A stretch of DNA of 53,847 nt, counting the filler, from Asterionella formosa (Eukaryota), in NCBI GenBank assembly GCA_002256025.1. It is 4 parts of 4 records of this genome, joined end to end, with 100 filler letters (N's around TTAATTAATTAA, not from the genome) between each part and the next. Parts side by side here need not be neighbours in the genome. Positions count along the whole stretch, not along the records: positions 13,491 to 26,880 come from NKIB01006732.1; 3 more parts are not named here. One strand, 5' to 3'. Both the position numbers and the translations under genes were made by a program. Of this stretch, positions 1,186 through 50,483 are shown one piece after another. The notes under the pieces were generated by a model. It was not told where the DNA came from. It did no database searches and was given only the letters and a program-made list of their open reading frames with translations. Every line of letters starts with the position of its first letter. Position 1 is the stretch's first letter.

Positions 1186-1621
1186 TGCCATTGTACCATA
1201 CAGACAAATAAAACCAGTACTAATTGTTTCCATTCAAGTGGGCATGAGTGCAATTATTGGCTTACTTTAACATACCATAAAAATCTAATTATCATTTATC
1301 TCTGTAACACAAGATAGTTGGTGGGTTCAAAGTATGACAAGTATTGTTTAGTATATAAATCACAACAACAGTGCTTGATTAACTATGTTTGTGCCTATCA
1401 TATTTAGTCCAAAATGTGCATTTACTCAATTTAACATTGGCTCTTGGTACCCTGCTCTTTATTCCTTGGTACTACCAGTAACCACCGCAACAGACATTGT
1501 GTATTGGATAGAAAATGCCAATACAAATTGACATTCCATGTCCTGTTGACAATCCAGCCTTTAATAAGCAGCTATGGGAATGTGGCACTCGGAACCTTGA
1601 TTCATTCCAGACAGCCCCCTT

Positions 1622-2986
1622 TCAAGCCAGTAGTTCATCCAACTGCTTCACAATTTCGATGGCCCACAGCTCATATCCAATCGTGGATGGATGCAAGTGA
1701 TCTGGCATCAATTTGCTGTCCAGTCGTAATTGGCTTGTTGGAGCTTCTTTGTCTGTAAAAAATAAATCAGTATTGTAGTACTGCACTTTCTCATTCATAT
1801 CGGCATAGTGCTGCAAATCATCATTAATTGCAGAAATATCTGCCCACAATGAGGGCAAGGCAGCTCTATTCCAGCTTAACAGCTTGGAATGACCCTTCAT
1901 GACGTAGCCTTTTCGGTTGAAAGTTCTTGGTAATAAGCCATTGATCACTATTGATGCATTGGGCCTCAGCAACCTAAGTTCTTGAACAATGCGTAGAATG
2001 CCAATTTCTACCAATTCTGGAGAGCACCATGTATTTCCAATGTCGTTGGTGCCAATGAGTAGCCAAATAACTTTGGGGTTAATTTTTTCAGGAAATTCCC
2101 CATTCTTGATTCTCCAGAGTAGGTTGGGTGACTTCAATAGTCAATTTGATCCATGCTTGTTAGTGAGAATAAACTGTCCTAACAAGGCGAACTTGACACT
2201 CTTGGCGACTTACCGTATCACCCGAAATGCCTAAAGCTAGTCCTTCATATTTACCAGAGTCTTTCGAAAAATATTTGTGAAATACTTTAGGGACATCTTG
2301 TGTTCTGGCACTCGTGCGCCCATATGACGTTCCCTTCCACCCCTCAGTGATGGAATCACCAAGGAAGAGCACATCAATCTCCCCCTCGTTGACGGCAGCT
2401 GCTTCTATATTAATTTCATGAGCTCGATGCCAGTATTTCAAATGATCGCGCCCTACTGGTTGTAACGGGTCCTGGCACTTGCATTTCGGTTGTCCGTCCT
2501 GTTGGTGGGCTGTCAGTGTCAACGTTGCTTGGTGCATCATCCATTTCGGGCTGTTTTTCAAGCGCCACTTACATAACACCACGTATCGACAGAATCTGTC
2601 GTCAATTCATTGATGGATTGAATTCTAGTAAAATCCCTCTGTATACGCTCCGGGGAAATCTCGTCAACTGGACTGGACGAAATCCAATCGTCTAATCGAT
2701 CCAACAACACGAAGGCGCCGAAAATCAACCCAACAATTCTTCCATACTTCAATGCCTTCATTCCCTTCAACCTTCGTTTTCGATCTCTTCTCTGGTTTTC
2801 GGATTCAACCGTTACGGATTGCATTATCAAGGGCGATTTTGGCGCCTTTCGCTGTTGAAGGCTGTCCCTAGGCAACGATGCAGAAGTTTCTGGAAGCGGG
2901 TCCATGTGGAGACTTAGATCCTGTTCCCGATGCTCTCGCACTTCTTCCTTGACCCACAAAGACTTTAGGTAGTCAGTTTGCAGCAT
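1622..2986 (-). CDS. SGNH/GDSL hydrolase (PAF-acetylhydrolase Ib-like), type II membrane; 3 exons: complement(join(1622..2131,2214..2498,2573..2986)), about 402 aa
   Basis: Motifs LFLGDSITEGW, LGISGDT, LLIGTND and DHLHPS. GTAAGT..AG introns at 2499-2572 and 2132-2213 have CTGAC/CTAAC branch points and join the three ORFs in frame. N-terminal TM segment IVGLIFGAFVLL. Confidence 0.9.
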
Positions 2987-4312
2987 GGCGAGGTATTTGG
3001 TTGTGACCGAGCAATGAATAACAAGTTGTGGCTTAGCTACCGGTCGATAATTGAGTACCGGTACGGTATACTATTTCAACATTTTGAAATCGGAAATTTA
3101 TTGATGTTGTTGAAATCCGAGATCATAATATCATAATTAGATGTAGGTATATTCCCGGCATGTGTAGGTATTTGCGGATCAGCCATACCGGTAACAATGC
3201 TAATACATAGTCGTACCACATCAAAATGTCCTCCTTTTCTGGCTGTTCGCTCTTTGTGAACGGCTGCAATACGGTACCTGGCCAGGTAGATGCTGATGCC
3301 GCCGCGGCAGCTGATGGTGGTGGGGATGAGAAAGTTCAGTCATCAACGTCACATCCGATATAATTATTTTATTAGCCAGAGCTCGCACTATCACATGCCG
3401 GTATGGCTGGTGTATGTATGATCACCATTCGGCTGCTCCGCCAAAATGGTGCCAGCGCGTACTCACTCCATTAGGTAGCTGGAATCAGGTACCTGGTACA
3501 GGTACCGTAACTCTACCAAGGAACTCGATTACCTGGTACGGTACTGGTACTGCTCTCTGTGACCGGGATCTGTATATTCCCGGTAACTGGTAGTATACCA
3601 GGGCGGTAAATATCATTTGTTGCGAGGTAAATAGGTGCATGTGGATAGTACATAGGAGTTGGTCCTGTTCATCCCGGCTACATACTAACCTGGTACCAGG
3701 TACCAGGTACTGTTCGTGTTCTTACCTCGACTCTTGCGCGCTTGTTGCTGATGCACACGTACATGGGTATCTACCACGAGGTCTGCAAAACCATCACGAG
3801 GGAGCAAGGAGGACCGCGAGTTATGATTTGGCTGCTGTGTCGACATCCTGCTGAATGGTGCTCTGCACGACATGCAACAACTGGTGATCACTGTGATGCT
3901 GGTGTATTGCTGTATGATCAACAGCATTTCTGACATGAGGCTGTTGCTCATGGTCAACCGAAATGACAACCAAGAAACAACAATGTTTTGGTTTCAGTAG
4001 CCCAAAAAAGGGGATGCTAGGCAGCAAGAGTAAAAAAGGGGATTCCATTTCCATAGCTATTGACTACTTTGAATGTAACAAGCAGAAACCCAATTTCATT
4101 TTAAGGTTGTAACCCCATCTTAATCCTATGGAGTTTGGAGCAAAACTGTTGCTAGGGTTGTAAAAAAGGCATGGAGCAAGGAGTTCGTTTCTGTGCAGTC
4201 CTGCGATTCTACTAGTGTCCATATGAATATTTAAATTTAATAGTAATCAGCACCAGATTGATAGAGTTCCATTTTAAACAAACAGAAAAGATATTTACAA
4301 GATCATATTATA

Positions 4313-13390: not shown

Positions 13391-13490
13391 NNNNNNNNNN
13401 NNNNNNNNNNNNNNNNNNNNNNNNNNNNNNNNNNTTAATTAATTAANNNNNNNNNNNNNNNNNNNNNNNNNNNNNNNNNNNNNNNNNNNN
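13391..13490. other. Assembly gap with artificial TTAATTAATTAA spacer (also at 26881-26980 and 40341-40460; plain gap at 49743-50350)
   Basis: An identical 12-mer giving stops in all six frames is embedded in three N runs. Confidence 0.95.
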
Positions 13491-16400
13491 TTGTGTCTCA
13501 AGGCCCAGAACCACAGACATGACCAAAAGCGCACGGACAGTAGACCACTGGACCACAGGGGCATAGGTTTCAAAATATTCAATACCTTCCTTCTGGAGAT
13601 CCCTGTGTACACAAAACCGTGCTTTGCATTTGCGAACATGACCATCTGGAAAGAGCTTGCGCTTGAAGGCCCACGTGCCTGGTAGAACCTTATGGTTAAT
13701 AACCGATGAACGGGGCACAAGCGTCCAAGTATTCTTTTTGGTTAAAGCAGTGACTTCAGTGACCATAGCTTCACGAAAAAATTCGGAATCAGGCCCAGAC
13801 ATAGCCTCGTGATAGCGAGGATTATCGGGGTCCATTTTACGTGCCATGGCGGCGTAGATAAGAGGATCAGAACACTCAAGAAGTCCAGTGACAGGGTCGG
13901 TCATTACAGCACACATATAGGCCATTGCAGAATCAGACGCACTGACTTCAGAACATTCAACAAGACCAGCAAAGAATGCATTGGAAAGGTATTCTCCTGG
14001 TACAAAACGAGTGGGCCCGATTCCGCGTGTAGAACGAGTACTGCGGCGGGGAGAAGAGATGTTTGGAGGGAAAATTGCAATTTCAGGAGATGGAGGCTTT
14101 TCTGGTGAAAAAAGGAATGGATGCTGGTGGTGGCGGCGTAGCTGGAATTATGATGATGGGAACAGGAGGAGGAACAAAAGGAAGAGAAACAAATTCGGAC
14201 TCTCTCTGACTTGGTAGTTCATCGGGAGGTAGGTTCAAACGGGGAAAGATCTTAGATTCTTTTAGTAGGAGCCGGCGACGGGAAATGTCATCTGGCTCTA
14301 GCCACTCATCAGCAAGTGTGAAGTTTGTGTGTTTGTCAAATTTGGTCTCAAACCGGGACTCGTGAACGACAGTTTCCCAATTTCCCGGAGGGTCGTAGGA
14401 TATATTTAGCGAGGAAACGGTCGAGAATAGATCATCAAAGACGACGTGGTGAAATTGCGGAGAAATATGTTCTGTTGTCAGATTAAGTACCAAGGGAACA
14501 TTGGTACTATGAACATGGGAGATTCCAACAAAAATGGCGCGGCGGGAGCGAGGTTGCCAGCGTGGAAGCTTTTGTCCATTTTGTAATTTAGGGTCAAGGA
14601 CATAACAAGGACAACCCCAAACGTGTAAGTCCTTCAATCCATGACATGGAAGGATGGATTTCGTAAATAAGTCCATGGGAGATTGTCCAGTCTTGGAACT
14701 GGGCACATGGTTGTACAAATGTACTGCATAGTCCACCAACATAGGCCAGAGAGCAGGGTCAGCTGTAGAAGGCCAACGAATGGAAGCATTTAGTATCATG
14801 ACACGGGCCATGTTGGAAACAGTGCGAATGCTGCGTTCTGCAACACCATTTTGATGATAAGCTCCAAGACCACAAAAATTTTACAATTTGTCCTTTAGTT
14901 TGAATGACATCTACAAATTTACTGGCTCCAAAGCTGCCATTGTCAGTAGTATATTTATCAAACAAAACTCAAGAATTATAGCTCCAATTTTCAAAAGCCA
15001 TTTTATCTTGCAGAGTTTCTAGGACAGTGAATTCAACTAGATTCTGAATGAAAAGTAGGCCAGATAAGTGATCAGTAAATATGCACCCCCCCCCCCTTGT
15101 ACATATCGGTTGGTGAAGTCTTTCCTCTAGAAGTGTCAAGACGACCAGGGACCTTAGAAACAAAACGGTCAACAGAAACACCGGAGCCGGGATAAAGGTC
15201 ATTTGCTTTCACTCCCCCTTCTTTTACCGGTGTTGGGGCGGACGTGGATGCCTGAAAGGGTTTACGGTACGCCTTCCCGTATTCACAGGCAGCGCATTTT
15301 GGAGGAGTGCAGCGCGAAGCCGCTCGAATTTTCTGGGATGTACCAAATGATGGCTGACGTAGAAGAAATTGAATGGTGTCTGAGCAGAGGTGGCCAAGAC
15401 GGAAGTGCCAGTGAAGATATTCCTTTTGAGCCTCAGTAAGGTTTTGGTTTGTTTCGTCTGTGACACATAAGTTAAGGGAGGCTTCTTTGTCGCACACAGA
15501 TGAAGCACGAATGCCATGACTGGTAGGAAGAGAGTTTATGGGATCATAGGGAATAGTCAAGGTGGGTGATCCATCAATTACAAGGCGTGCGCAATCAGCG
15601 GTTACCTCGAAAATTCCCACATGGCCATTTTCTTTGTCGAAGATACGTTGAGGAGATAAAAGGCGTTGTTTGCATTGAGGCACATAATATGCAGTAAGAT
15701 GAAGTGTCAAGAGGCGACCAGAGTCAGAAAGGAAAGTCCACTGTACAGTGGCGATGCCAGCAACTGTGAGACCAGAAGCAATACCACCAAGATGAAGGTG
15801 AATGGAGGGTTGAAGAATGGGACCGACAAAATCGGTGGAATAGGCAGAAACAGGACGTGAGGCACCAGTGTCCCAAATGGCGGTGAAATGTTGTTCAAGG
15901 CCACCAAACAAGGAGATGGGGTCCATTTCAATGGGACGAAAGATGGATGAAGGCAAAGGTTTTGATGTGGGAAGGATGTTGATGGCGGGAGTGCAGATGG
16001 AGTCAAGAATGACAGGAAGAGGTGAAAAATTATGAAATGAATCTTGGAAGATGATGTAGGCAAAGAGTGATGGAGCCATGATGGGAGGAGTGGAACGTAG
16101 AATACTTTGTGTACCAGTGGGGAGAAATTTGCATAAGGAAGACAGAAAAGGAGTAGAATAAGGGATGGTAGAAAGGGAAAAAGTAATCCCAGGTAACCCA
16201 GGCGAAGGATCAGGAGGTTTAGGAGAAAAGAAAAAAAGAAAGAAGGGAGCAATATCCAACAAGAATGGAGAACAAGAAGGACCATGCCAGGTGACCATGT
16301 TATCATATGCGCCACCAAGAAACATTGCAGTAAACCACATGTTAATCATGATCCCACAAAAAATCAACCATACTGTCGGGTAGCCCAGTAATTTAATGTC

Positions 16401-16511
16401 GGTGATACGCCGACAACCAAAGATATCAAACATTGGGAAATACCAACAGAGAGGCATCGCTGTTGGTAAGTCTGTCAAAAGAAGCAAGGACCACCAAACT
16501 TGGGAGAACAA
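13491..16511 (-). mobile_element. Ty1/copia (CoDi-like) LTR retrotransposon pol, interrupted; PR-INT-RT order, truncated at the scaffold gap
   Basis: Protease IWDTGAS. Zinc motif WHFRLGH..CAACEYGK. Integrase PGSGVSVD, TDNGSF, QNGVAER and WGCPCYVLDPKLQNGQKLPRW. RT start EAMVTEVTAL..LPGTWAFKRK..KARFC..FETYAPVVQWSTVR. Several frameshifts and stops. Confidence 0.93.
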
Positions 16512-17338
16512 TCAGACGGATTCATAGGACTGGTAGCAAAAGGGGTAGTAGGGTTCAATGATAAGTCAATGGACAAAGTCAAAGGAACAAGAAAGTGCGA
16601 GTCAGTGAGATGAGGATTGGAAGGCAACATAGTAGTAATGGTGGTAAAGTTGGATAGGTCTGGCACAGTACCACCAGTCATGAGTGTTATGCCCAAGGGG
16701 CGATAATAAATCATTATTAACAATCAAAGACAAATTATTATCGACCGACCAAGTGACATGAGAGTCATCACAAGTAGAAATACATCCAAAACTTCTAAAT
16801 TGAAGAACAAGAGCATTGTTTTCATTCCCTCCCTACTATGTACCACCTCCTGCTGTGGTTGTCGTTGTTGCTGTTGCTGCTTCTGCAGCTGCACCTCCTC
16901 CTGTTGCTGCTACTGGTTGTCCTACTAATGATCCACCATTCCGTGATCAAGTTTGAGACTCCGCAAGTAAGAATTGAATGAGAAGCTCGTGATTTATATA
17001 ATTCATCAGAAGAATTCTCTGATGATGATACTGCCCTGGAAAAGTGTAAAACGTTAAGTAATAAGAAGAAAATTTTTGTAGAATAAACGGAGTAAAAATA
17101 AACACCGGTTGGGGGGAAAATATATGAAGGTTCCTGCATTTGAATCCCTAGCTCGAGGTAGGGTTTAAAAAATATTATTGAGTCAGAGTGGTCAAACCTA
17201 CACTTCTTACGAGAAAAACGTAAATGTATATCGCTAAATGGAGCTTTCACCAATATACACCCTTTCCATATGCTTAGATACAGTCTTCTGACAAATTAGG
17301 GGTATAGGTCAATGCTGTATATTGTAAGGATATGGATC

Positions 17339-17464
17339 CGGCAAGAAACTGCAGAAAGGAACTTCGGTTTTTTAAACTTTGTTGAAAATTGAGGATTTTA
17401 CCGGGCCAACTCGTTCATTTGGCCTAGTAAAAAAACCGAAGTTCCTTTATGCAGGTTCTCGCCG
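17339..17464. repeat. Imperfect inverted repeat of about 36 bp (about 53 bp spacer) inside the transposon end
   Basis: CGGCAAGAAACTGCAGAAAGGAACTTCGGTTTTTT versus AAAAAACCGAAGTTCCTTTATGCAGGTTCTCGCCG. Confidence 0.85.
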
Positions 17465-17496
17465 AAAGTTATCTTCTGGGGCTATATGAAGATTAC

Positions 17497-20163
17497 CTAT
17501 GTACTTAACTCTTCTTCAAAACCTTCCAACGTTGAGCTATTGTCGTTCAAAAATTCGAAAATATCGGCCTTTTCAACGGTCACCGAAATGTCGGAATCAG
17601 AATCACTAATCGCCAAAACGTCATCATCGGAATAGGAGTCTCGTGATTCGATTTTTCGTCCTACAATCGCCTGTACAAAAAATTCAATTGTAAGTGCACG
17701 CTTCACTATAAATATTTTGATTGGTCAAGATAAAATACTTACTGACAATTGATTGGTGGCCTGGTTTGCGCGGTCTTGCAAACCCAAGCTGGCCACACTG
17801 GATGCACATGTAACATTTTCTAGGGTGTTGGCCGGTACAATATCTACAGTAGGTAGCTGATCATCATTGATCATACGCATACCAGTATGATCAGGCACTT
17901 TGCCTACTGGTACATTGAATGGACAGAGTGTGCTGCTATTCCTTTGATGATCATTTCGGCCACAATGATTGCAGACATTTGTTCCTTTCCTTCTTGTTTC
18001 CTGATGTTCCCTTCTGAGTGCAACACCAGAGCCATAAGTCTTACCTGATTTGTTATCTTGCCTTTCCTGTTTGACTGTTTCGAATCGTGCTGCATGTATT
18101 TTTTCGCTTTGTTTCCTCTATTGTTTGAATTGTGCTTTATAGGCTCCATTGTCACTTCGTCCCTTTTCTTTTTGTCTCCAGAAGGATTCTCGCAGTGCTG
18201 ACATCTGCATTCCACATTGCTTGTATACATTCCTTGTGTATTGTGTTGCTCCTTGTGTGTGTTTCCCAGAAACCGAAGCCACTCGATATTGAAGGCCTCC
18301 AGATCCCGCAAACACCTGGTTTTTTGGACATCGTCGCGACACTGCATTGTTCATTGCCTCATTAATCTGCGTGTCAATGGGATGATGCAATTAAATTAGC
18401 TTTTCGCCTTCGACTTTTGTTGCAACATGCAGCATTAACCATTCGTATAAATCTTTTTCCTTTTCCTTGTCATGATATTTTCCGTTACTAACCAATTTTC
18501 CTGCTTTTACAGGGCACCATGTCTCAGAGCAGTAATCGTGGCAGCCAAATTAATGGTTGATTGGTGCCTTGGAGAAAATACTGAATTCGGCCAGAGAGAG
18601 GTTCCGGTTTTTTTAAATCCAAGCGCCATAGTAAACTTTCAACCGGAGACAATCTGCTTTTGAGGGACACTCAAGGGAGACCGGGCCATTGGGCGGATTT
18701 CATAAAAGCTGGGCGGAGAAGGACCTGTACTCTGTGGGATGGGTCAGACAGAAATGCAGGTTCAGGTACAGTCAGTGGAAAACATCCTTTGTCCGATTTT
18801 TTCAATCCTTCAATGTTCTGGGCCATTGGAAGGATGGCTTTAGTTTCAATAACTCCTTCTTATAGGACCACTTAGAAACAACTCGACTAGTAGAATTATC
18901 ATCACAGATGATTGTAGAGTAGATAACATTGCTTTTCATTACTGCATCAATCATCATTTCCACACAAGCATCTGGTTCCATTGCTAACTACCAGTTACAT
19001 GATTCTTGGGACAAACATGTTCCTTGATTGGCTCCTTGTACCGTACATATAGCCCTGTCGCACACATTACAGACCTTAGATTTCACTCTGTAGTCTAGTA
19101 TCTTTTTCGCTAGTCTAATGGCTTTTTCGTGTAGCCACCAATTGAAAAAAAGCATGTCCACTTAGAATTGTACTTATTCCCACTGGTCCGCTGCTGCCAG
19201 CCCATATCGTAACTAACAGTGAGTCGAGGCATACTCAAAAAAGACAAGCGATCCTTACCAGTCAGACTGTTCAACCACTGAAAATCACGTCCTTTGTCAG
19301 CCCAGTCTCCTCGTTCATGCACATTGAGTTTCAGATATATTTCATACTGACACGCCTCTTTTGTTGCAAGAGCGGTTGCAGTAAGTTCAGCGTTTCCCAC
19401 CAGTTCCTCTACCGCACCAAAGTTACCTTGCGTAGACCAAAATCCAAAGGTAAGTGGAAGATTCATTGCGGAGCAGATGATATAGTATGCATCTGCTGGT
19501 CCCATTCTGGCTTCGTGACAACCCAAAATAAACTGTTTGTTGATAGAAAAGTAATAAACTGTTTGTTGATAGAAAAGTGTTCTGCTTCTATTGCGTTATT
19601 TCTTATCTCATCATTTCTGTCTCCATTGCTGTTGCTTCTTGCAGGTTCGAGATTAGAAATCAGTTTCTGACAGGTCAAACAAGAGACAGTGAATTCGCTT
19701 GCCAGTCCAAGCCGTAATTTTTGGAAGATACAACAATCAACGGTTGTCTCATTGTTGAAATCGGAAAGTCAAACACATCCTGCTCCAGGAATGCTTCACA
19801 TTACTGTTCAATGGACAGCTTTTGTTTTCTATTTGATGTAAAGTAAGTTACAAAGTCACGAAGTGATTGTTTGCAATATTCTTTTACAAATTTATTAACA
19901 CAACTTTTGCAATACAAATCTTCCTGCAGAAATTTCGACAATGTATTATAGTCGATTATATGATTCATGTTCAGTTGAGAATAGTCTGTTTTAATTGGTG
20001 ACGATGTGATTGCTAGTTCAATTCGTGAAGAGGTTGCTGTAGGGGGACAAAAAGGCATCTGAGAGGTCCACCAATTTTGATTTTCATTGGACGCTATATT
20101 TCGTCCTCCTTGACCACCAACACCAATTTCGGAAATGAGATGGCTACCACTGGAACATGGCAT
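17497..20163 (-). pseudogene. DDE transposase pseudogene (Kolobok / Pfam Mutator-like transposase type)
   Basis: Ordered motifs across frames: LYCKSC; GLASEFTVSCLTC; INKQFI..GCHEARMG; TVSYDMGWQQRTSGNKYNS (D1); HVCPKNH..AMEPDA; IICDDNSTSR (D2); LSDPSHRVQ; FGCHDYC; DTQINEAMNNAVSRRCPKN (E); C-terminal CNHCGRNDHQRNSSTLC. Probable phase-0 intron 17671-17742 leads to an acidic last exon. There are in-frame stops and a 26-bp duplication at 19527-19578. Confidence 0.85.
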
Positions 20164-20315
20164 GATTTTGTCTTATAATAGTTGGTGTTGCTTTTTTTTA
20201 TGGCTGGTTGATTTGTTTGATTGTGTAAAAATAGAAATATATTTGTCATTCATGTCACCTCACTTCTAGAAGGTTTTGAAACATCGTACGTAGGTGGATT
20301 GAAGTTCTTGATTTA

Positions 20316-20825
20316 CTAATGAAATAAATGAAAATCGTAAAAACAATAATCACTAATAGATTTAGAACATTTAGAACGTTTGGAAGTTGGTTTTAAACCA
20401 GTGTACACTTTGTTTGGGTCCTTGTTCTTCAAAAGAGATCGAACCCCCTTCAAACAACAGTCAGGAAGTTGCATCCAAACACCTTTTCCCAATGGATCAC
20501 TGAAAACTCTGATTAGAAACTTGTACAGAAGATTGCAGGCTCTTGATGCTGTAATGTCTTCATCCTTCAACCTGGTAAGAATGGATTCACCTTCCAGAAA
20601 CTTCTCCACCAACTCTTCGACTTCATCCCATCGGCACTGACATTCAGGGCAGCAAAAATCGCAGCATTTGCAGAAGATGCGATCCTTATATCCCTCCACA
20701 TACAACTCTACAATCAACTGCTGGTCTTGGCAGGGAGGACAACTATCATGACTGTAGATAAATTTGTTATTACCGTTGTCATTATCATTTTGATGTGTTA
20801 TTTCGCTCATGGTTGATTGTTGCAT
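20316..20825 (-). CDS. KolX-like Cys-rich protein (P2X7 intracellular ballast domain-like), transposon accessory ORF
   Basis: Intact 169 aa. Cys cluster CPPC..FCKCCDFCCPECQC, followed by LYKFLIRVFSDPLGKGVWMQLPDCCLKGVRSLL..KVYTGLK. This matches the KolX/P2X7 C-terminal pattern YR.F.....LGKG.R...P.C....IR..FP....Y.GFK. Lies inside the TIRs. Confidence 0.72.
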   Translation of the reverse strand: MQQSTMSEITHQNDNDNGNNKFIYSHDSCPPCQDQQLIVELYVEGYKDRIFCKCCDFCCPECQCRWDEVEELVEKFLEGESILTRLKDEDITASRACNLLYKFLIRVFSDPLGKGVWMQLPDCCLKGVRSLLKNKDPNKVYTGLKPTSKRSKCSKSISDYCFYDFHLFH

Positions 20826-22068
20826 TTTTTTGTTTCTTACCGGTAGTCATCAACAATATTTGCCATGCTGCCAGCTCGTCTGACACATATATGTTGATTG
20901 TATGATAGGGTATATAAACATTGAGCAATGGGGAGAATGTTTATGTATATATTTATTGAATTCGAAAAGGAATCTATGTTTGTATGCGCAAATTTCCAGT
21001 GATTCAAATGTTTCAAATGGAATTACGTCATTCAAAATTAACTCAAAAAATTCTTAGTTCCAGGGAATTTCGGCAACCCTTAGCAATATATAAATTTTTG
21101 CCTAGGGGTTCCAATGCAGGAACGTTAATGTACAAATAGAAAAATATGCACTGTAAGCCACCGCTATGCAACAATCTTAGTGACTTTGGAAAAATTATAT
21201 CTACATGGCTCAATACACTGAATTGAAACTGATTACTTAACACTATAGCAGAGAGCATCTTCAAACATACACTTTGTACTTTCATCAAGTTTTGATTGTT
21301 GTACTGTATTACATAGATATTTTTAGTCGGAAGATAGAGTAAGATAGCGTGGGCTTACCGGTACAGTTTTTAACTGGCACTCACTGTAAGGATCTAACAG
21401 ATGTTTGGACAAAAGAAACAGATGGTGAGACAAAAAGAATTAGGAAATGTTGACGAATGGGTCACAGCCAGTTGAAGCAAGAAAAGGAAGACGTGTGATA
21501 TTTAGCATGCAGTATTCAGGAACAAAAACAAGACCAGCGTCAACAAATTTACGACTAAGATTGTTTATGGCATGAAAAGGCTCTTCTTTTTTTAATTCTC
21601 CCTATTACAAATTTTTTCGATCGCCCTGTCCCTGTTTCACACTGGATCTGTTGCTTGATTAGCACAGAGGTGTTGCAGTACATAGGAACCGTGGTTTCAA
21701 CATCACACTCACACATCTGTCGAATTCAATTTATTTTTCTGCTTATCATCATCTCTTTGAATTTACAATTATTGCGTATACATATTTCGTATTGATTCAT
21801 TCATTCGCTTTCTTGCGATCGCATCTTTCTGTTAACTTCGCTCTCAATACAGGCCTCTCCTTTTATTGGGATTCTAATAGTACATCATATTATTGTGATA
21901 AGCAAGCGCAAGCAAATCATCCTATCGTCGTCAAAGTGGGCATTTGTTGACTTGACTTTTTCAAATTATCCTTTCTTCCTTTCTTTGCATCATTATTAAA
22001 CTGGGTGGCGGGTGTCAATGACACTTGCTTTTGGTGTGAGTGTGTGTGTCCAATTTTCAACGTGAAGG

Positions 22069-23295
22069 ATGTCAAATTCATTGTGTCTTCGGAAAGAATT
22101 TGCCGAACATGAGGCGCCACAGTCATTCCGCCAACGTAGCATCCAGTTTAGTCGAAAACGATTCAGCTTTAGCGTCGTCGGTGAAGGTCCGAATAGAAAG
22201 ATTCTGGGATACGAACTATCACAAACGAACCTGATGAGCTCACTTTCTGCCATGAAGAATACTTGTGGATGGCTATGCACGCATTGTAAATACGAAAACG
22301 TGGACTCAACGAACACTACTTGTTCTGTATGTGAAAACATTCACGAGGAATCGCTCAAAATTGAAAATGATGCACTATTACTTGATTCGATTGATAGTAG
22401 TGATAGTAACGCACACGGTTCGGGATTTACATCTACGGGTTTCGACAATGAATTCAGCGTCGATAGGCGTCCTCGGCAAGGTTTTGTTCGTAGTAACGAT
22501 GAAAGTATGATGTTGGGCAGTTTATTGATGGGTGACAGACGAGGAAGTTCCAGTAAAACTATTCCATCGGAATGGAAACTTGATAACATTCCCTGGACTT
22601 GTACAACATGTACGTTTATCAATGCTGACATTGGCATGTTGAGTTGTGAGGTATGTGATATGGAATACGCAAGGAACCAAGAAATTGAGGTGGCTGACCG
22701 CAGAGGCAGCTTTGCAAGGGGACAGCGAAAGTCCTTGTGTGCGGCCATGGATAGTCCATTTGTGGGCGACATGGAACACCAGATTGCACTGTTTCGGGAG
22801 TTTGAAGAAAAGGCGCTAAAGAAGGCACGGATGGAGGAGATCATTACTCACCAGAAACAATTTTTAAATGACATTGCTCCGCATCCTCATGGTTCCGAGA
22901 TTTCTCAAAATGACCATTGGCAAGGAGAAGTAGACTTTGAAGAGCTTGAATTGACCAAGATAACCCTTCAAGAGTCCAGGGAGAGACTTCGATTTTTGGA
23001 GTCTATCCATTTTTCAGAAAAGGAAGACCAAGACAAGATGGCAGCGTTACTAGAGGAAAGAAAGAAAGCGATTGAGCATTCGGAGGGCAAACCAATGGAT
23101 GAATACACCGGTCGAGCGACTCGCCCGGGTGCATGCTCTGTCTCTGTAAATGCCCTGGAATGGGTGGCACAAAACCGACTCTTACTTGATTGGAAGGCCC
23201 AATGGGAGGAGCGGAATGACGAGATAAAAGCCCTCGTGGAGCAAGAACGACTAATTGTTGACAAGTGGAAGAAGGAATTTGACATTTCTTTGTAG
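22069..23295 (+). CDS. Protein with two RanBP2-type zinc fingers and a C-terminal coiled coil
   Basis: WLCTHCKYEN..CSVC and WTCTTCTFIN..CEVC. Glu/Lys-rich helical C-terminus. 408-aa ORF; start codon uncertain. Confidence 0.85.
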   Translation: MSNSLCLRKEFAEHEAPQSFRQRSIQFSRKRFSFSVVGEGPNRKILGYELSQTNLMSSLSAMKNTCGWLCTHCKYENVDSTNTTCSVCENIHEESLKIENDALLLDSIDSSDSNAHGSGFTSTGFDNEFSVDRRPRQGFVRSNDESMMLGSLLMGDRRGSSSKTIPSEWKLDNIPWTCTTCTFINADIGMLSCEVCDMEYARNQEIEVADRRGSFARGQRKSLCAAMDSPFVGDMEHQIALFREFEEKALKKARMEEIITHQKQFLNDIAPHPHGSEISQNDHWQGEVDFEELELTKITLQESRERLRFLESIHFSEKEDQDKMAALLEERKKAIEHSEGKPMDEYTGRATRPGACSVSVNALEWVAQNRLLLDWKAQWEERNDEIKALVEQERLIVDKWKKEFDISL

Positions 23296-23404
23296 CTTAT
23301 ACAATACTTACAAGAATAAATCTAAATATTTTGTGGATATCTAAATCGCGTGTTTTAGACACGTAGACAAGGCCAAAACATGAGGAAAAGAACCGAAGAA
23401 TCAC

Positions 23405-24520
23405 TTATTTTACATACACATCCCATCGATTCACTGACCCTTTAATTTCGTGGGAGGGTTTTCGTATGGAGGAGTTTGTAGTCCCACCTAACGGCAGTGC
23501 TTGGATTGGACGCTTGACGACCACTCGACATGCAGCAGCTTCGATGGCGACTTCAAGGAGATGCATTTCTCGTATGCTAACATCGGTTTCGTCAATTTCC
23601 TGTGAGTTAAGGAGACCATGCAGAATTTGCATGTTTTTCTTGACGGCGGAAGATTTTGTTCTTGGAGCGAACATTGGATCAAGGTACATACAGTCAGGGG
23701 GAGGAATATCCAAAGGTGAATTTTTCACAGCCTCAGCTGCCTCGCCAACTTGCAGTGACAAACGATTTAACAGATCTGAGGCTGTATCTTGTCTACTATC
23801 ATCACTTTGTGAAATAAGTTTCAATCTATCCAAAGCATCTTGCAGCAAAGCTGCGACAATGGGATCACGTTCAATCATGTGCACATGCGATGCACCATTT
23901 TGCGCTAGTATCAACGAATCCTGTCCAAACCCTGCAGTCAAATCGTATACCACGGCTCCGTTCCTATTGCTTGATCTAATCTTTCCTGGCGCAACTGCCT
24001 TTACCAACAAATCAGAGCCCGATTTTCCTTTGGTCCTCCTGTCGAGCTTGCTACCCTCAGGAGGGCAAAAGTCGACAAAGAATGGTGTCGCGAGGGGCGC
24101 ATTGCGCCTGATTCTATTCTTCTTGTCACTTGAGTCCCCTCCGAGCGATTGAACACCGATAGCAGTGCCCTCAGTGGTACCTGCAGTGTACCGCACGACT
24201 ACTAGGGCATGGTGGAAGCGATCGACATCCGCACTGGCTACCTCGTGCACGTAGGGTATCGAAAGCCTTCCAGCTAAAGTCCTTGCAGTAGCTATGAGAG
24301 CGTCGTCGTCGGTCAAGACGCAGATACGTTGCTTCTGTGAATCTTCACATAGCTTGCTTTCCTTATGAGACATCAGTTTCGACGTTGTTTGGCAATACTG
24401 GCCTGGCCTGGCCCTGGTTTGGCGCCGAGCCCCGGAAGTATCCAGGGCCAACGATGATACTCTATAGGAAGCGAGAAGTGGAAATACGACGAGTGATGCT
24501 GAGATCCAACATGTTCTCAT
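23405..24520 (-). CDS. rsmJ: RsmJ/YhiQ-like SAM-dependent SSU rRNA methyltransferase, probably plastid-targeted
   Basis: DLTAGFGQDS, MIERDPIVAALLQDAL, YLDPMF, SAVKKNM, RVVVKRP and RWDVY parallel bacterial RsmJ motifs. Hydrophobic N-terminus ending in VSS-LAL, then a basic transit-like stretch. Confidence 0.9.
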   Translation of the reverse strand: MRTCWISASLVVFPLLASYRVSSLALDTSGARRQTRARPGQYCQTTSKLMSHKESKLCEDSQKQRICVLTDDDALIATARTLAGRLSIPYVHEVASADVDRFHHALVVVRYTAGTTEGTAIGVQSLGGDSSDKKNRIRRNAPLATPFFVDFCPPEGSKLDRRTKGKSGSDLLVKAVAPGKIRSSNRNGAVVYDLTAGFGQDSLILAQNGASHVHMIERDPIVAALLQDALDRLKLISQSDDSRQDTASDLLNRLSLQVGEAAEAVKNSPLDIPPPDCMYLDPMFAPRTKSSAVKKNMQILHGLLNSQEIDETDVSIREMHLLEVAIEAAACRVVVKRPIQALPLGGTTNSSIRKPSHEIKGSVNRWDVYVK

Positions 24521-26390
24521 TTACGACGCAATCTGGACAATGATCAAATAGAACACTGGCGCACAAGGATTCTATATAACGACGACGAGCTCCTTCATTT
24601 AGAGTATAGTGAGTGTATAACAACTGGTACCGGTAATAGTATGGTTTAGATATGAATGATCTTCTTTAATGTATGATCCTACACCGAGGATGGGCGACAC
24701 TAAAGGAACGACGAGCGAAGTGATGTGCTATTTTTGCGTTTGCTGTGTTGATCTCGGAGTAATTTTATGATACCCTTTTGTCGGTCTCGTTCGTATCATG
24801 ATTAATAGATTATCACAGGTGTACCTGGTACCAGTACCAGGTGCCAGCACCTGGTAGTATTGCGCGTTTCGTACATGTGCGGTATCATACGAAGCTATAT
24901 TGTGATGATTAAAGCTACTCGAAGTAGAGCAAATACCGGTTTACGTGCTACAGTTAGACTACTACAAGTAGTCTAAGTAGTCTATGCCATGCTGGAAACC
25001 TGTAACAAAGAATAAAACTAAAGCAAAATTGAGAATGATAATGAAATATTTGTAAGATCAAATACTTCAGCCTTTTGTTCAATGTTTTACTGTTAAACTT
25101 TGTTAAAGTAACCATTTCTTTGTTAATAGCTGTAAGCTTACTTGTCCAACTGTTTGTATTGTTAGCTTCAATGATAACTTGACTTGTCTTACATTTTAAG
25201 ATTCCAAACTAAAGTTGAAAGCAGATTTCACACTTTGCTAAAGCTAAAACTCCACAGATGAACTTTTCTCTGATTGTCGTCCATTGCAACAACTGTTCAT
25301 TCACAAACTAGATCTGTTTCCCCAGCACCATGATCACTCCAATGTCTTGGTTGCTCACACTTTACAAAAAGTGAATTGACATCTCATGTCAAAATCAAGA
25401 TTCATTCCATTGAAACATTGTTCATTCAAATATAATCATATTAAAATTTGATCAAATTGATCAAATCACATAAAATAGAATCCACGATTCAATATTTTGT
25501 CAAAACTTCACATGCGAGCTTCTATCACTGGATGCAAGTAACCTTATTTTCTGAAATAGTGGCATTAATTCATGTGAATTGACAAATTATTCGACTCATC
25601 GGTACATGAAATTTCGAAAATTGGCATGTGTTGTATGCTGCGGCTTAGATGATGTTTCTACTTTATAGGCTGCAAGCAATATCAAGAAGGACCTGGTGAC
25701 ATAAATATTCTGGACAACATTGCGTCATGTTTCAAGTTATGATTTTCAAGTACTATGGCAAGGAGAAGGAGAAACAAGATATCACACGACCAAGGTGACA
25801 GATGTATTTGGAAGATTATTCAATCTACTATTGCCAATCTGGTATGGAGTGCATACCAGGTACAGTCTAAGCCTCCTACCAGGTACCCTGTACTAAGTCT
25901 ATGCACAAGTACAGATGGCGATAAATAACTTCTTGGATCATTATGAAACATCATCCAGAGCAAATCCACAAATCATCAGATAAAGTTGACGTCCAAAAAA
26001 TGACCAACCATCGTCAACATTTATAGGAAAAAGAGATCATTTTCCTCTCTTTGGCAATGGCGATCAGCCATTCTACAAACTGCAAATAGTGGAAAAGAAT
26101 AGCGCTCTCCAGGACCTTACCCAGTACCAGGTACTCAGAGTTCCACCAAAAAATGAGAGCCAACATTCAATCACCACATCATTTTTTTCTTATATGATGA
26201 AATTCGAACCAAGTAAGAATTTTATTGTAGAGAATAGAAAAGGAATCGCTTATCATGTAATCAGTTCTAAAGTAGAGCATACACCAGTTATGGAGGTCTA
26301 AGCCAATTTAGCTATGTCACACATTTTGATTTAAAAAGCTATCTGTCATAACATATTTTTTACATAAACAAAAGCCAAGACAGGGTTGAT

Positions 26391-26593
26391 CTTGAATTGT
26401 AAGTTACCATTACTTTTTATTGGAACTTATGACCTTGTTTTGGGATGACAGCCAAAACCCAATACAAACCTTGAATTGTAAACTATCATCACCTTGTATT
26501 GGGATGGGATGTAGTACAGCCAAAACCCAATATGGGGACATCCTTGACATGTAAATTATCTTCACCTTGTATTTGAACTTGTGACCTTGTATT
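26391..26593. repeat. Degenerate tandem repeat of about 79 bp (about 2.5 units)
   Basis: CTTGA(A/C)(T/A)TGTAA recurs at about 26391, 26470 and 26543. ACAGCCAAAACCCAATA occurs twice. Confidence 0.75.
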
Positions 26594-27089
26594 GTTCGGA
26601 TGTGTCAAAGGTGCACTCCAAGTACCTGGTACCGGGTTCTGAGGAGAAGCATACCTACCTGGCACGACGTGCGAGTTTACAGGACGAAACGCTCAAAAAT
26701 TTGGCCCCCTCCCGGTCATTTTGAGAACTCATGTCGGATCAATAAGCACCACATAACACCTTTTTGTGAGCAATAAGCATTTTCTTTTGTGCCTGATGGA
26801 AGATAGATTTGTCTTCTTAATCCGTTAGAGTGACATTTGAATTTTTCGACGAAGGATTCATGTCGACGACAGTCAACGGANNNNNNNNNNNNNNNNNNNN
26901 NNNNNNNNNNNNNNNNNNNNNNNNTTAATTAATTAANNNNNNNNNNNNNNNNNNNNNNNNNNNNNNNNNNNNNNNNNNNNCTTATGCTGAACGCATGATT
27001 TAGTACGAATTTTTCGGCCGGCCAGCAGCACGCAACCCGACACATACGTCATCACCTCTCTTGACATCGACTTCCCCGATGCATGCCAT

Positions 27090-40340: not shown

Positions 40341-41537
40341 CTCACCTGGACCTTCCAGGGNNNNNNNNNNNNNNNNNNNNNNNNNNNNNNNNNNNNNNNN
40401 NNNNTTAATTAATTAANNNNNNNNNNNNNNNNNNNNNNNNNNNNNNNNNNNNNNNNNNNNGGAAAACAGCGGAAACGATTGGAGTCGTCATGGTGGAAGA
40501 AGGCCTGAGAGGCCTGAGTGACAGGGACAGCAAACGGGCAAGCGGTGCTGGACACTTGATTGTTGAGACCAGTGCTGGTTTGCACTGTCGACAAGAGCCG
40601 CAACTTCGCAGGTGCGGACAAGAGAGAAAGAACAGATATTGTAGTTCTGTTGAGGGGAACCTTATCGTGAATAAAGGTGAACTACAATATTATGACTATT
40701 CTATTGCTGTTCCAAGTACATCGTTGTTAGCACTCACGCATGTACCTAATCTGGTGGCTGCGCCGGTATGGTTCGTACAGCGCATGTAGCTATGGAGCAT
40801 CATATGCAGATATTAACAACCACATCACTTATATGATTATTCAACCAGAATCATGACATGCACGAAATATTTCTGCATCATGAGGCAGCAGATGAAATGA
40901 TTCTGTGAACACTTCCGGCAAGCCGACAACATCAAGGCCAGAACTGCCTGAGCCTTTAGCATTTAGCTTGATAATCGCTCCACAACAAGCATGCAAGTTG
41001 CAGCTTCGACTTTTGAAATAGATCTCAGGACAAGGATATTGCCATCGCAAATGTCATTGGCATCGCTCATGTTGTTGTTGATTGTTGTTTCATGATGGTG
41101 ACCGGTAAGAATACAATTATAGTAAATGCATTAATAAATAGCTAGAATACAATAATATGCTGTTATTTTTTCTGTAGACATAAAATATTTGGGGGTGTTG
41201 TGCCAGATGTACGAAGGGGGGCACAGGTATCTGGGGGGATACGACACCAGGTTTTACGGTACGGTACCTGGTACAGAAACCCTGGTACGGTTCGATTACG
41301 GAATGCGCGGCCGTGAAAGTGGCGATGATGGGAAGGAAGAAAACGACGGGTATGCTCGTTTTGACGATTGGAACCGTTAAATAGCTGGCAGTTAGGTTGA
41401 TGTAAATGTAGCAACAGTAGAAAATATACATGTGTATTCGGCTTCCCGCAAATATTTGATTGACCGGTCGATGTAAAACAGCATCATTTGGCGATATGTA
41501 TGTGCATGTATGGAATGTACCGGTATACATGTATATT

Positions 41538-49742: not shown

Positions 49743-50483
49743 NNNNNNNNNNNNNNNNNNNNNNNNNNNNNNNNNNNNNNNNNNNNNNNNNNNNNNNNNN
49801 NNNNNNNNNNNNNNNNNNNNNNNNNNNNNNNNNNNNNNNNNNNNNNNNNNNNNNNNNNNNNNNNNNNNNNNNNNNNNNNNNNNNNNNNNNNNNNNNNNNN
49901 NNNNNNNNNNNNNNNNNNNNNNNNNNNNNNNNNNNNNNNNNNNNNNNNNNNNNNNNNNNNNNNNNNNNNNNNNNNNNNNNNNNNNNNNNNNNNNNNNNNN
50001 NNNNNNNNNNNNNNNNNNNNNNNNNNNNNNNNNNNNNNNNNNNNNNNNNNNNNNNNNNNNNNNNNNNNNNNNNNNNNNNNNNNNNNNNNNNNNNNNNNNN
50101 NNNNNNNNNNNNNNNNNNNNNNNNNNNNNNNNNNNNNNNNNNNNNNNNNNNNNNNNNNNNNNNNNNNNNNNNNNNNNNNNNNNNNNNNNNNNNNNNNNNN
50201 NNNNNNNNNNNNNNNNNNNNNNNNNNNNNNNNNNNNNNNNNNNNNNNNNNNNNNNNNNNNNNNNNNNNNNNNNNNNNNNNNNNNNNNNNNNNNNNNNNNN
50301 NNNNNNNNNNNNNNNNNNNNNNNNNNNNNNNNNNNNNNNNNNNNNNNNNNTCATATGCATGAATACCTCTTATCTTTTAGAACTCCTTTTTACATAAAAC
50401 GTGATGCAGGCGGCTCTCAGTCCATTTTTAGTAAAGGGAAAATGGGCTGGCTATTATTGTTAACCAGAAACCGTCTTTAACAG

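Follow-up and report, generated by a model that had tools for sequence, protein, structure and literature searches.

A cysteine-rich reading frame beside a dead transposase in Asterionella formosa: probable accessory gene of a two-gene Mutator-like transposon, with a possibly ballast-like tail

Does a short, cysteine-rich open reading frame that stays open next to a wrecked transposase persist because the host keeps it, or does it belong to the transposon, and what kind of protein does it encode? The question is raised by a 53,847-nt stretch of DNA from Asterionella formosa (GenBank assembly GCA_002256025.1), here called the window, in which positions 13,491 to 26,880 come from record NKIB01006732.1. 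An earlier note had singled out one open reading frame in it, ORF1, as an intact relative of the vertebrate P2X7 ballast and of the KolX protein of Kolobok transposons, and had suggested that the host might retain it. We consider it likely that ORF1 is instead one gene of a two-gene Mutator-like element (MULE), that it serves this element as an accessory gene, and that the copy in the window is defunct and has drifted neutrally.

ORF1 lies inside a single copy of a transposon with the following parts, in which L001 denotes an intact relative on a metagenome contig:

17127..21139, minus strand: single copy of a two-ORF Mutator-like DNA transposon of ~4.0 kb; ends approximate, within ~7 nt
21102..21132, strand not applicable: terminal inverted repeat (TIR), ORF1-end arm; 31 nt, 84% complementary to 17121–17151; same arm in L001 at 246–270
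17121..17151, strand not applicable: TIR, transposase 3'-end arm; 31 nt, pairs with 21102–21132
20316..20825, minus strand: ORF1; ancestral product ~152–156 aa, ending at 20349; tblastn of L001 ORF1 matches 20822–20349 at 89.9% identity
20164..20315, minus strand: ORF1–ORF2 spacer; L001 equivalent 186 bp (1020–1205), 94.5% identity, 3 indels
17734..20163, minus strand: ORF2, Mutator-like transposase (PF20700), disabled here; tblastn pieces of L001 ORF2 at 20163–17737
17339..17464, strand not applicable: subterminal hairpin candidate in the 3' non-coding part of the element; arms 17339–17373 and 17430–17464, 35 nt, 91% complementary, 56 nt apart

A tblastn search of the window returned this one copy of the element only. 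L001 aligns to it at 92.8% identity from window position 21142 as far as 17528, the point at which the contig of L001 stops, and the alignment spans both ORFs and the TIR. In L001, ORF1 (525–1019; 156 codons, 164 from stop to stop) and ORF2 (1197–3581; 791 codons, 794 from stop to stop) are both open, and three internal-deletion copies (P0044, P0061 and P0073) join ORF1 directly to transposase sequence. Because both frames are open in L001 and the deletion copies run ORF1 into the transposase, ORF1 and ORF2 are parts of one mobile unit. L002, which represents a second subfamily, is likewise an internal-deletion copy. The 791-aa product of L001 ORF2 matches PF20700 at 148 bits (E value 3.8e-43); pieces of the window's ORF2 match the same family colinearly at 26.5, 18 and 14.4 bits, spread over three frames, and no Kolobok family was reported among the Pfam matches of the transposase. 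By the 148-bit match, the 31-nt TIR and the multiple copies, deletion derivatives included, the element is classed as Mutator-like. The intact transposase falls in a 90% cluster of 159 sequences, which indicates that the element family was numerous and recently whole; when 5.8 billion proteins were searched by profile, 76 ORF1-family protein clusters emerged.

Contigs carrying other copies depart from the window sequence before 17125–17127 (about 10 contigs) and behind 21132 (one contig). The target-site duplication of MULEs is usually about 9 bp long, and a candidate 9-bp duplication, AAATATATG / AAAAATATG (8 of 9 positions matching), fits ends at 17127 and 21139; it was picked among 2080 combinations of end and length in AT-rich DNA. 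As a separate observation on the transposase, in its distant relatives P0097, P0100 and P0101 (26–28% identity, from other sources) the PF20700 protein also contains domains of exonuclease type (PF00929, PF22123), recalling the KolobokD elements with a DEDDh exonuclease described in the available text of Kojima and Bao (2022, PMC9587614).

ORF1 itself is not a chance frame, given the 38 matching proteins at E ≤ 0.01 (identity up to 89%) in the 5.8-billion-protein collection and the 37 cluster representatives found by an exhaustive HMMER scan. The matching proteins are all short, and many show visible frameshifts, as expected of copies of a repeat. The intact frame, dense Cys cluster and tail motifs described earlier all stand: the ORF listing gives 169 codons from ATG to stop at 20316–20825 (minus strand) with no internal stop, and the translation contains 14 Cys, nine of them within residues 29–64 (C29, C32, C52, C54, C55, C58, C59, C62 and C64), followed by Y101-K-F, L112-G-K-G, L120-P-D-C-C, V128-R and Y141-T-G-L-K. 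The consensus of the Cys-rich half across the family reads CPTC..EGC..RIFCECCDFxCPECQC. The two parts of the frame are located as follows:

20634..20741, minus strand: Cys-rich half of ORF1 (residues 29–64), CPPC...(C->Y)...FCKCCDFCCPECQC, as read in translation
20391..20543, minus strand: ballast-like tail of ORF1 (residues 95–145), RAC-NLLYKF...LGKG...LPDCC...VR...YTGLK, based on the match of a related tail (P0006) to PF20478 and on motif comparison with the available text of PMC7016195

The first ATG of the window's ORF1 is probably derived, as L001 has K there, with M6 as the common start; at the other end, a 10-codon tail (20319–20348) is due to loss of the ancestral stop after ...SISD, as seen against L001.

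Is this gene maintained in the family? A protein-guided codon alignment of L001 and L002, comprising 141 codons for ORF1, gave proportions of non-synonymous (pN) and synonymous (pS) differences of 0.244 and 0.75 for ORF1, synonymous sites being saturated, and of 0.321 and 0.737 for the C-terminal part of ORF2. A cruder, DNA-guided alignment of ORF1 from the same copies returned an omega (dN/dS, the ratio of non-synonymous to synonymous change) of 0.19. As read from these codon alignments, the comparison shows ORF1 to have been kept by selection across the divergence of the two subfamilies, about as strongly as the transposase. Constraint comparable to that on the transposase implies that ORF1 probably serves the element, as an accessory factor; its product is predicted to be, most likely, a small zinc-binding protein. 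In working copies, a Cys-rich protein of ~152–156 aa is encoded just inside the 5' terminal repeat, with the 791-aa PF20700 transposase following on the same strand after a spacer of ~186 bp. The small protein would work together with the transposase, much as KolX is placed in Kol0 Kolobok elements.

The transcripts bear on how the two genes relate. RNA evidence came as contigs from four libraries (X18, X20, X21 and X24), in which neither strand nor level is readable from coverage. The runs that contain parts of the element include six metatranscriptomes and one poly-A run, X24, made from the sample that gave the best DNA match and is labelled 'algae metagenome'. In X18, X20 and X21, three of the four libraries, positions 20364–20771 are covered by RNA contigs that are at least 90% alike, though these may stem from other copies or from DNA; in X24 the coverage of ORF1 amounts to just 32 nt. 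Strand could be read from splices, and these were antisense only:

19843..19951, plus strand: intron of an antisense transcript; donor GTAAGT at 19843, acceptors ending at 19929 (CTGCAG) or 19951 (TTATAG)

The joints, 19842->19930 in X20 and X21 and 19842->19952 in X24, follow GT..AG on the plus strand and lie within the N-terminal coding part of ORF2, in transcripts from three libraries of two studies. ORF1 might instead encode no protein of its own but form the opening exon of the transposase gene, with splicing or read-through connecting it to ORF2, since the two lie on the same strand, 186 bp apart and, in L001, in the same frame (525 and 1197 are each a multiple of 3). However, an X20 contig (record 15) crosses the spacer unspliced, from 19930 to 20403, and no sense-strand GT..AG joint occurs among the 15 of 23 joints listed. 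In addition, in-frame stops bound the L001 spacer, and the protein ends at ...CCLKGV seen in several relatives would be best explained by CGA-to-TGA decay. We regard a joint gene as improbable and treat ORF1 and ORF2 as two genes of one element.

Decay of the window's copy was measured against L001; the comparison DNA copies were L001 and L002. The neighbouring transposase is indeed as dead as had been supposed: relative to L001, ORF2 carries 15 indel events, nine of them frameshifting, and five stop codons by substitution. Nucleotide identity to L001 hardly changes along the copy: ORF1 stands at 96.0%, ORF2 at 95.6%, the spacer at 94.5% and the 5' part at 95.4%. ORF1 differs from L001 by 4 synonymous and 14 non-synonymous changes (dN/dS 0.87), with 12 residues altered across the 137 columns compared. 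Five of its replacements—C->Y, R->C, G->D, R->W and F->L—fall at columns with 70–84% family agreement, in line with the suspicion that consensus positions had begun to decay. From L001 to the window, substitutions run G>A 35 and C>T 25 versus A>G 18 and T>C 10 (60 vs 28), 44 of the 162 fall at CpG, and the observed/expected CpG ratio is 0.67 in the window versus 0.80 in L001. This GC-to-AT and CpG bias is a signature of unconstrained decay.

Could the host nonetheless have kept this ORF1, domesticated or exapted, after the transposase died? The frame is open although ORF2 has collected 14 disabling lesions over its 2373 bp, a rate at which 2.8 would be expected in ORF1 (P(0) = 0.062 under equal rates); both ORF1 indels are in frame, and three of the four libraries hold RNA contigs over it. 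Yet dN/dS is 0.87, divergence equals that of the non-coding parts, replacements have struck Cys, Arg and Gly residues that the family conserves, the stop codon has gone, and the frame still lies within an element with both TIRs. The RNA contigs, moreover, are strandless and possibly derive from other copies, with splices seen antisense only and the X24 poly-A run contributing just its 32 nt. Host retention, as proposed in the earlier note, was not borne out, as ORF1 evolves like its non-coding flanks (96.0% vs 94.5–95.6% identity), and we give it very little credence. A P of 0.062 is low, but unremarkable for one copy of many that was selected for being open, and it agrees with the caveat, raised at the outset, that so short an ORF could survive by chance. 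As judged from these comparisons, the window's ORF1 is open through shortness or luck and not through host selection. The transposase of this relic is destroyed, and ORF1 has probably drifted neutrally, with GC-to-AT and CpG decay, replacement of conserved Cys and Arg, and a lost stop codon.

Five points weigh against this picture of an element-serving gene and a neutrally drifting relic. Both ORF1 indels are of 3 bp, while none of the five non-coding indels is a multiple of 3. The probability of an intact ORF1 under neutrality (P = 0.06) is low. The dN/dS of ORF2 between the window and L001 is 0.50, which indicates that part of the divergence dates to still-active lineages. A sense-strand transcript of ORF1 is not among the RNA features seen. 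Lastly, ORF1 may persist in deletion derivatives just because it adjoins the terminus.

What, then, does the tail of ORF1 resemble? The P2X7 ballast, the point of comparison, binds two Zn ions and a guanosine nucleotide. The background invoked earlier, on KolX in Kolobok elements and on the Zn and guanosine diphosphate (GDP) site of the ballast, agrees with the available text of its two sources. According to Kojima and Bao (PMC9587614), KolX of Kol0 Kolobok elements resembles residues 476–595 of human P2X7, the ballast, and in a few piggyBac families a protein is encoded that is like KolX's C-terminal portion and lacks most of the seven cysteines. According to Rump et al. (2020, PMC7016195), the ballast combines a Zn-cysteine motif with a GDP site, the corresponding Zn-cysteine domain (ZCD) has three defining motifs and was undetectable outside Metazoa, R546, Y550 and R578 are conserved across metazoan ZCDs, and, of the GDP-site residues, only R546 and R578 are conserved beyond deuterostomes.

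Family sequences, comprising whole proteins, natural fragments and tails, went through 67 Pfam scans. In one of these, the 66-aa tail of P0006 matched PF20478 (P2RX7_C), the ballast family (E 0.056, 13.8 bits; gathering cut-off 23.5 bits), at profile positions 144–192 of 192. It was the sole Pfam family reported for this tail, and the match concerns the predicted family in the expected register. Without gaps, the family consensus presents equivalents of R546, Y550, P570, the CC pair 572–573 and V-R 577–578, and then, after a spacer two residues longer, Y-T-G-F (compared with the available text of PMC7016195). On the same basis, 8 of the 11 specified positions of motif 3, (L/I/V)PSC(C/S)x3IRx2(F/Y)Px5Y(S/T)G, fit the consensus LPDCCLKGVRSLLKNKDPNExYTG if V is taken for I. 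The family alignment comprises 71 sequences, many of which are incomplete or decayed; a relaxed motif 3 pattern occurs in 10 of them and the full R-to-(I/V)R spacing in 13. AlphaFold2 models of the ORF1 family are of low confidence (mean predicted local distance difference test, pLDDT, of 40.6 with a 24-sequence alignment and 44.8 with 71 sequences), and both place helices over the R/Y- and CC-bearing stretches of the tail. The two C-terminal helices of ORF1 would resemble the R/Y- and CC-bearing part of the ballast (ZCD) and of KolX.

In the window's own copy, the R546 equivalent has become Cys97, with Y101 and R129 kept. The column equivalent to R578 shows ~40% agreement among copies and is the least conserved of the tail, which may reflect CpG decay of CGN codons. 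Five relatives (P0009, P0010, P0012, P0013 and P0060) end exactly at ...CCLKGV, just before the Arg aligned with R578; these ends and the poor conservation of the column probably go back to repeated CGA-to-TGA/CAA decay of a CpG codon where copies are methylated.

We put true homology of the ORF1 family to the P2X7 ballast and KolX, as judged from these alignments, at about an even chance; that the family is a true, very divergent ballast/KolX relative, carried by an algal transposon of the Mutator superfamily as its accessory gene, is a possibility we rate a little short of even. A second explanation, which we hold at nearly even odds too, is that ORF1 is a lineage-specific Cys-rich, zinc-finger-like MULE accessory without common descent with the ballast or KolX, its tail being alike by chance or convergence. 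PF20478 is absent from 66 of the 67 Pfam scans, those of the window's ORF1 and of L001 ORF1 included; the single match lies 9.7 bits below the curated cut-off; and chance matches of equal or better E to unrelated families occur in the same scans, such as G-gamma (PF00631, E 0.0081) with the window ORF. No P2X7 chain was found in the PDB by sequence or profile with the ORF, the family profile, the P0006 tail or the tail profile, and none of the nine transposase relatives carries PF20478. A profile search of the 5.8 billion proteins at E ≤ 10 returned family copies alone, with no Pfam label (76 of 2757 candidates), and database searches produced no intermediate sequences. The ESM Atlas search gave no usable match, its nearest named clusters being assorted small zinc-binding proteins at scores of at most 0.82. 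Foldseek of the pLDDT-40.6 model found no PDB match at E ≤ 0.001 and no P2X7 chain; at the low confidence of that model, this counts neither for nor against the ballast fold.

The motifs, too, speak partly for independent origin, as far as the available text of PMC7016195 defines them. Cys motif 1, PxWCxCx2C, is not reproduced: the consensus RIFCECCDF has F-C-x-C, with no P-x-W and no Cys at +3. Nor is Cys motif 2, LCCRx3GxCITTS/T, since CCDFxCPECQC has CC-x3-C versus CC-x6-C and no ITT(S/T). Motif 3 departs at S->D, at F/Y-P->L-K and in a spacer of x7 versus x5. We compared the motifs by eye and post hoc, and the comparison scores the same residues as the profile. The motif differences and the sequence searches weigh against common descent and, together with the reported confinement of the ZCD to Metazoa, favour a lineage-specific protein. 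On the other side stand the P0006 tail, whose sole Pfam family was predicted beforehand and matched at the C-terminus of the profile, the six conserved ballast positions in ungapped register, and the precedents for such a protein as a second transposon gene in Kolobok and, as C-terminal part only, in a few piggyBac families (PMC9587614, available text). Of the proposed P2X7-ballast/KolX likeness, then, what remains is weak, at the edge of detection and confined to a tail of ~50 residues; it does not extend to Cys motifs 1 and 2, and PF20478 appeared in one of 67 scans at 13.8 bits and never with the window ORF.

Two further candidates were rejected. A match to complement receptor 1 (2q7z_A, E 2e-5) is spurious, being the sum of 4–6-bit matches to repeated modules that involve the derived residues D110 and W117. 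The G-gamma match was dismissed as well, as it was found in one of 24 members only and over the same derived residues.

How does the element compare with known systems? Like ORF1, KolX is a small, stand-alone, Cys-rich protein beside a DDE transposase in a TIR transposon, and the tails of both resemble the C-terminal part of the P2X7 ballast; the likeness to KolX is judged from the descriptions in the available text of Kojima and Bao (PMC9587614). Unlike the ORF1 element, with its PF20700 Mutator-like transposase and an apparently algal host, KolX elements carry a Kolobok DDD/E transposase and live in animals, and the N-terminal Cys clusters of ORF1 are spaced unlike the seven ballast cysteines. 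The piggyBac proteins, as described in the same text, offer a precedent for a ballast-like C-terminal accessory gene in another superfamily without the canonical cysteines. They lack most cysteines, whereas the ORF1 family is very Cys-rich in another arrangement and in yet another superfamily; if the homology is real, the ORF1 family would resemble the piggyBac case, with the C-terminal part kept and the N-terminal Cys arrangement different. Set against the P2X7 ballast/ZCD/NANOR-like group (PF20478, PTHR36981; PMC7016195, available text), the consensus matches R546, Y550, P570, C572, C573, I/V577 and R578 in register, as well as the Y-(S/T)-G that ends motif 3. A549, Y/F553, W559, I/V568 and F/Y581-P582 are unmatched, and the spacer before Y-T-G is two residues longer; the group is reported only from Metazoa, and the ORF1 family scores below the Pfam cut-off.

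A second gene has a parallel within the Mutator superfamily as well. MuDR of maize is a two-gene element, with the mudrA transposase and the mudrB helper. Like MuDR, the ORF1 element carries a non-transposase gene, here upstream of the transposase and on the same strand.

Around the element, two long intron-free host ORFs lie at 23405–24520 (minus strand) and 22069–23295 (plus strand). One encodes a 371-aa S-adenosylmethionine-dependent methyltransferase (PF04445, E 1.5e-39); the other, of 408 aa, has no Pfam match at E ≤ 0.001 and contains two W-x-C-x2-C...C-x2-C stretches that look RanBP2-type zinc-finger-like by eye. The surroundings are repeat-rich: fragments of a long terminal repeat (LTR) retrotransposon polyprotein (14083–16457, minus strand), with GAG-pre-integrase PF13976 and SH3-like PF25597, lie ~700 bp from the 3' end of the transposon. 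Three paired runs of 44 N with 12 bases between them (13391–13490, 26881–26980 and 40361–40460) recur every ~13,480–13,490 bases and have the look of a masking or assembly artefact, not of biology; one gap of 608 N lies at 49743–50350.

The window's copy is thus of little import in itself: it is a decaying transposon whose open ORF needs no special explanation. The point at the level of the family is modest: a Mutator-like element with a conserved, selected, Cys-rich second gene whose tail is ballast/KolX-like. The literature searched links the ballast module to transposons for Kolobok and a few piggyBac families only; a single paper in it brings P2X7, ballast and transposon together, and none of it joins the term 'ballast domain' with Mutator. 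The intact L001 copy provides a small, expressible protein with which to test what the module does for the transposon. If the homology were true, a ballast/KolX module would exist beyond Metazoa and in a third superfamily of transposons, and its common core would be two C-terminal helices with a CC pair and two arginines, attached to interchangeable Cys clusters. The reported confinement to Metazoa and the proposal that the P2X7 tail originated in Kolobok alone would then both have to be broadened, and the view of the vertebrate P2X7 tail as the descendant of an old, widespread transposon accessory protein would be strengthened.

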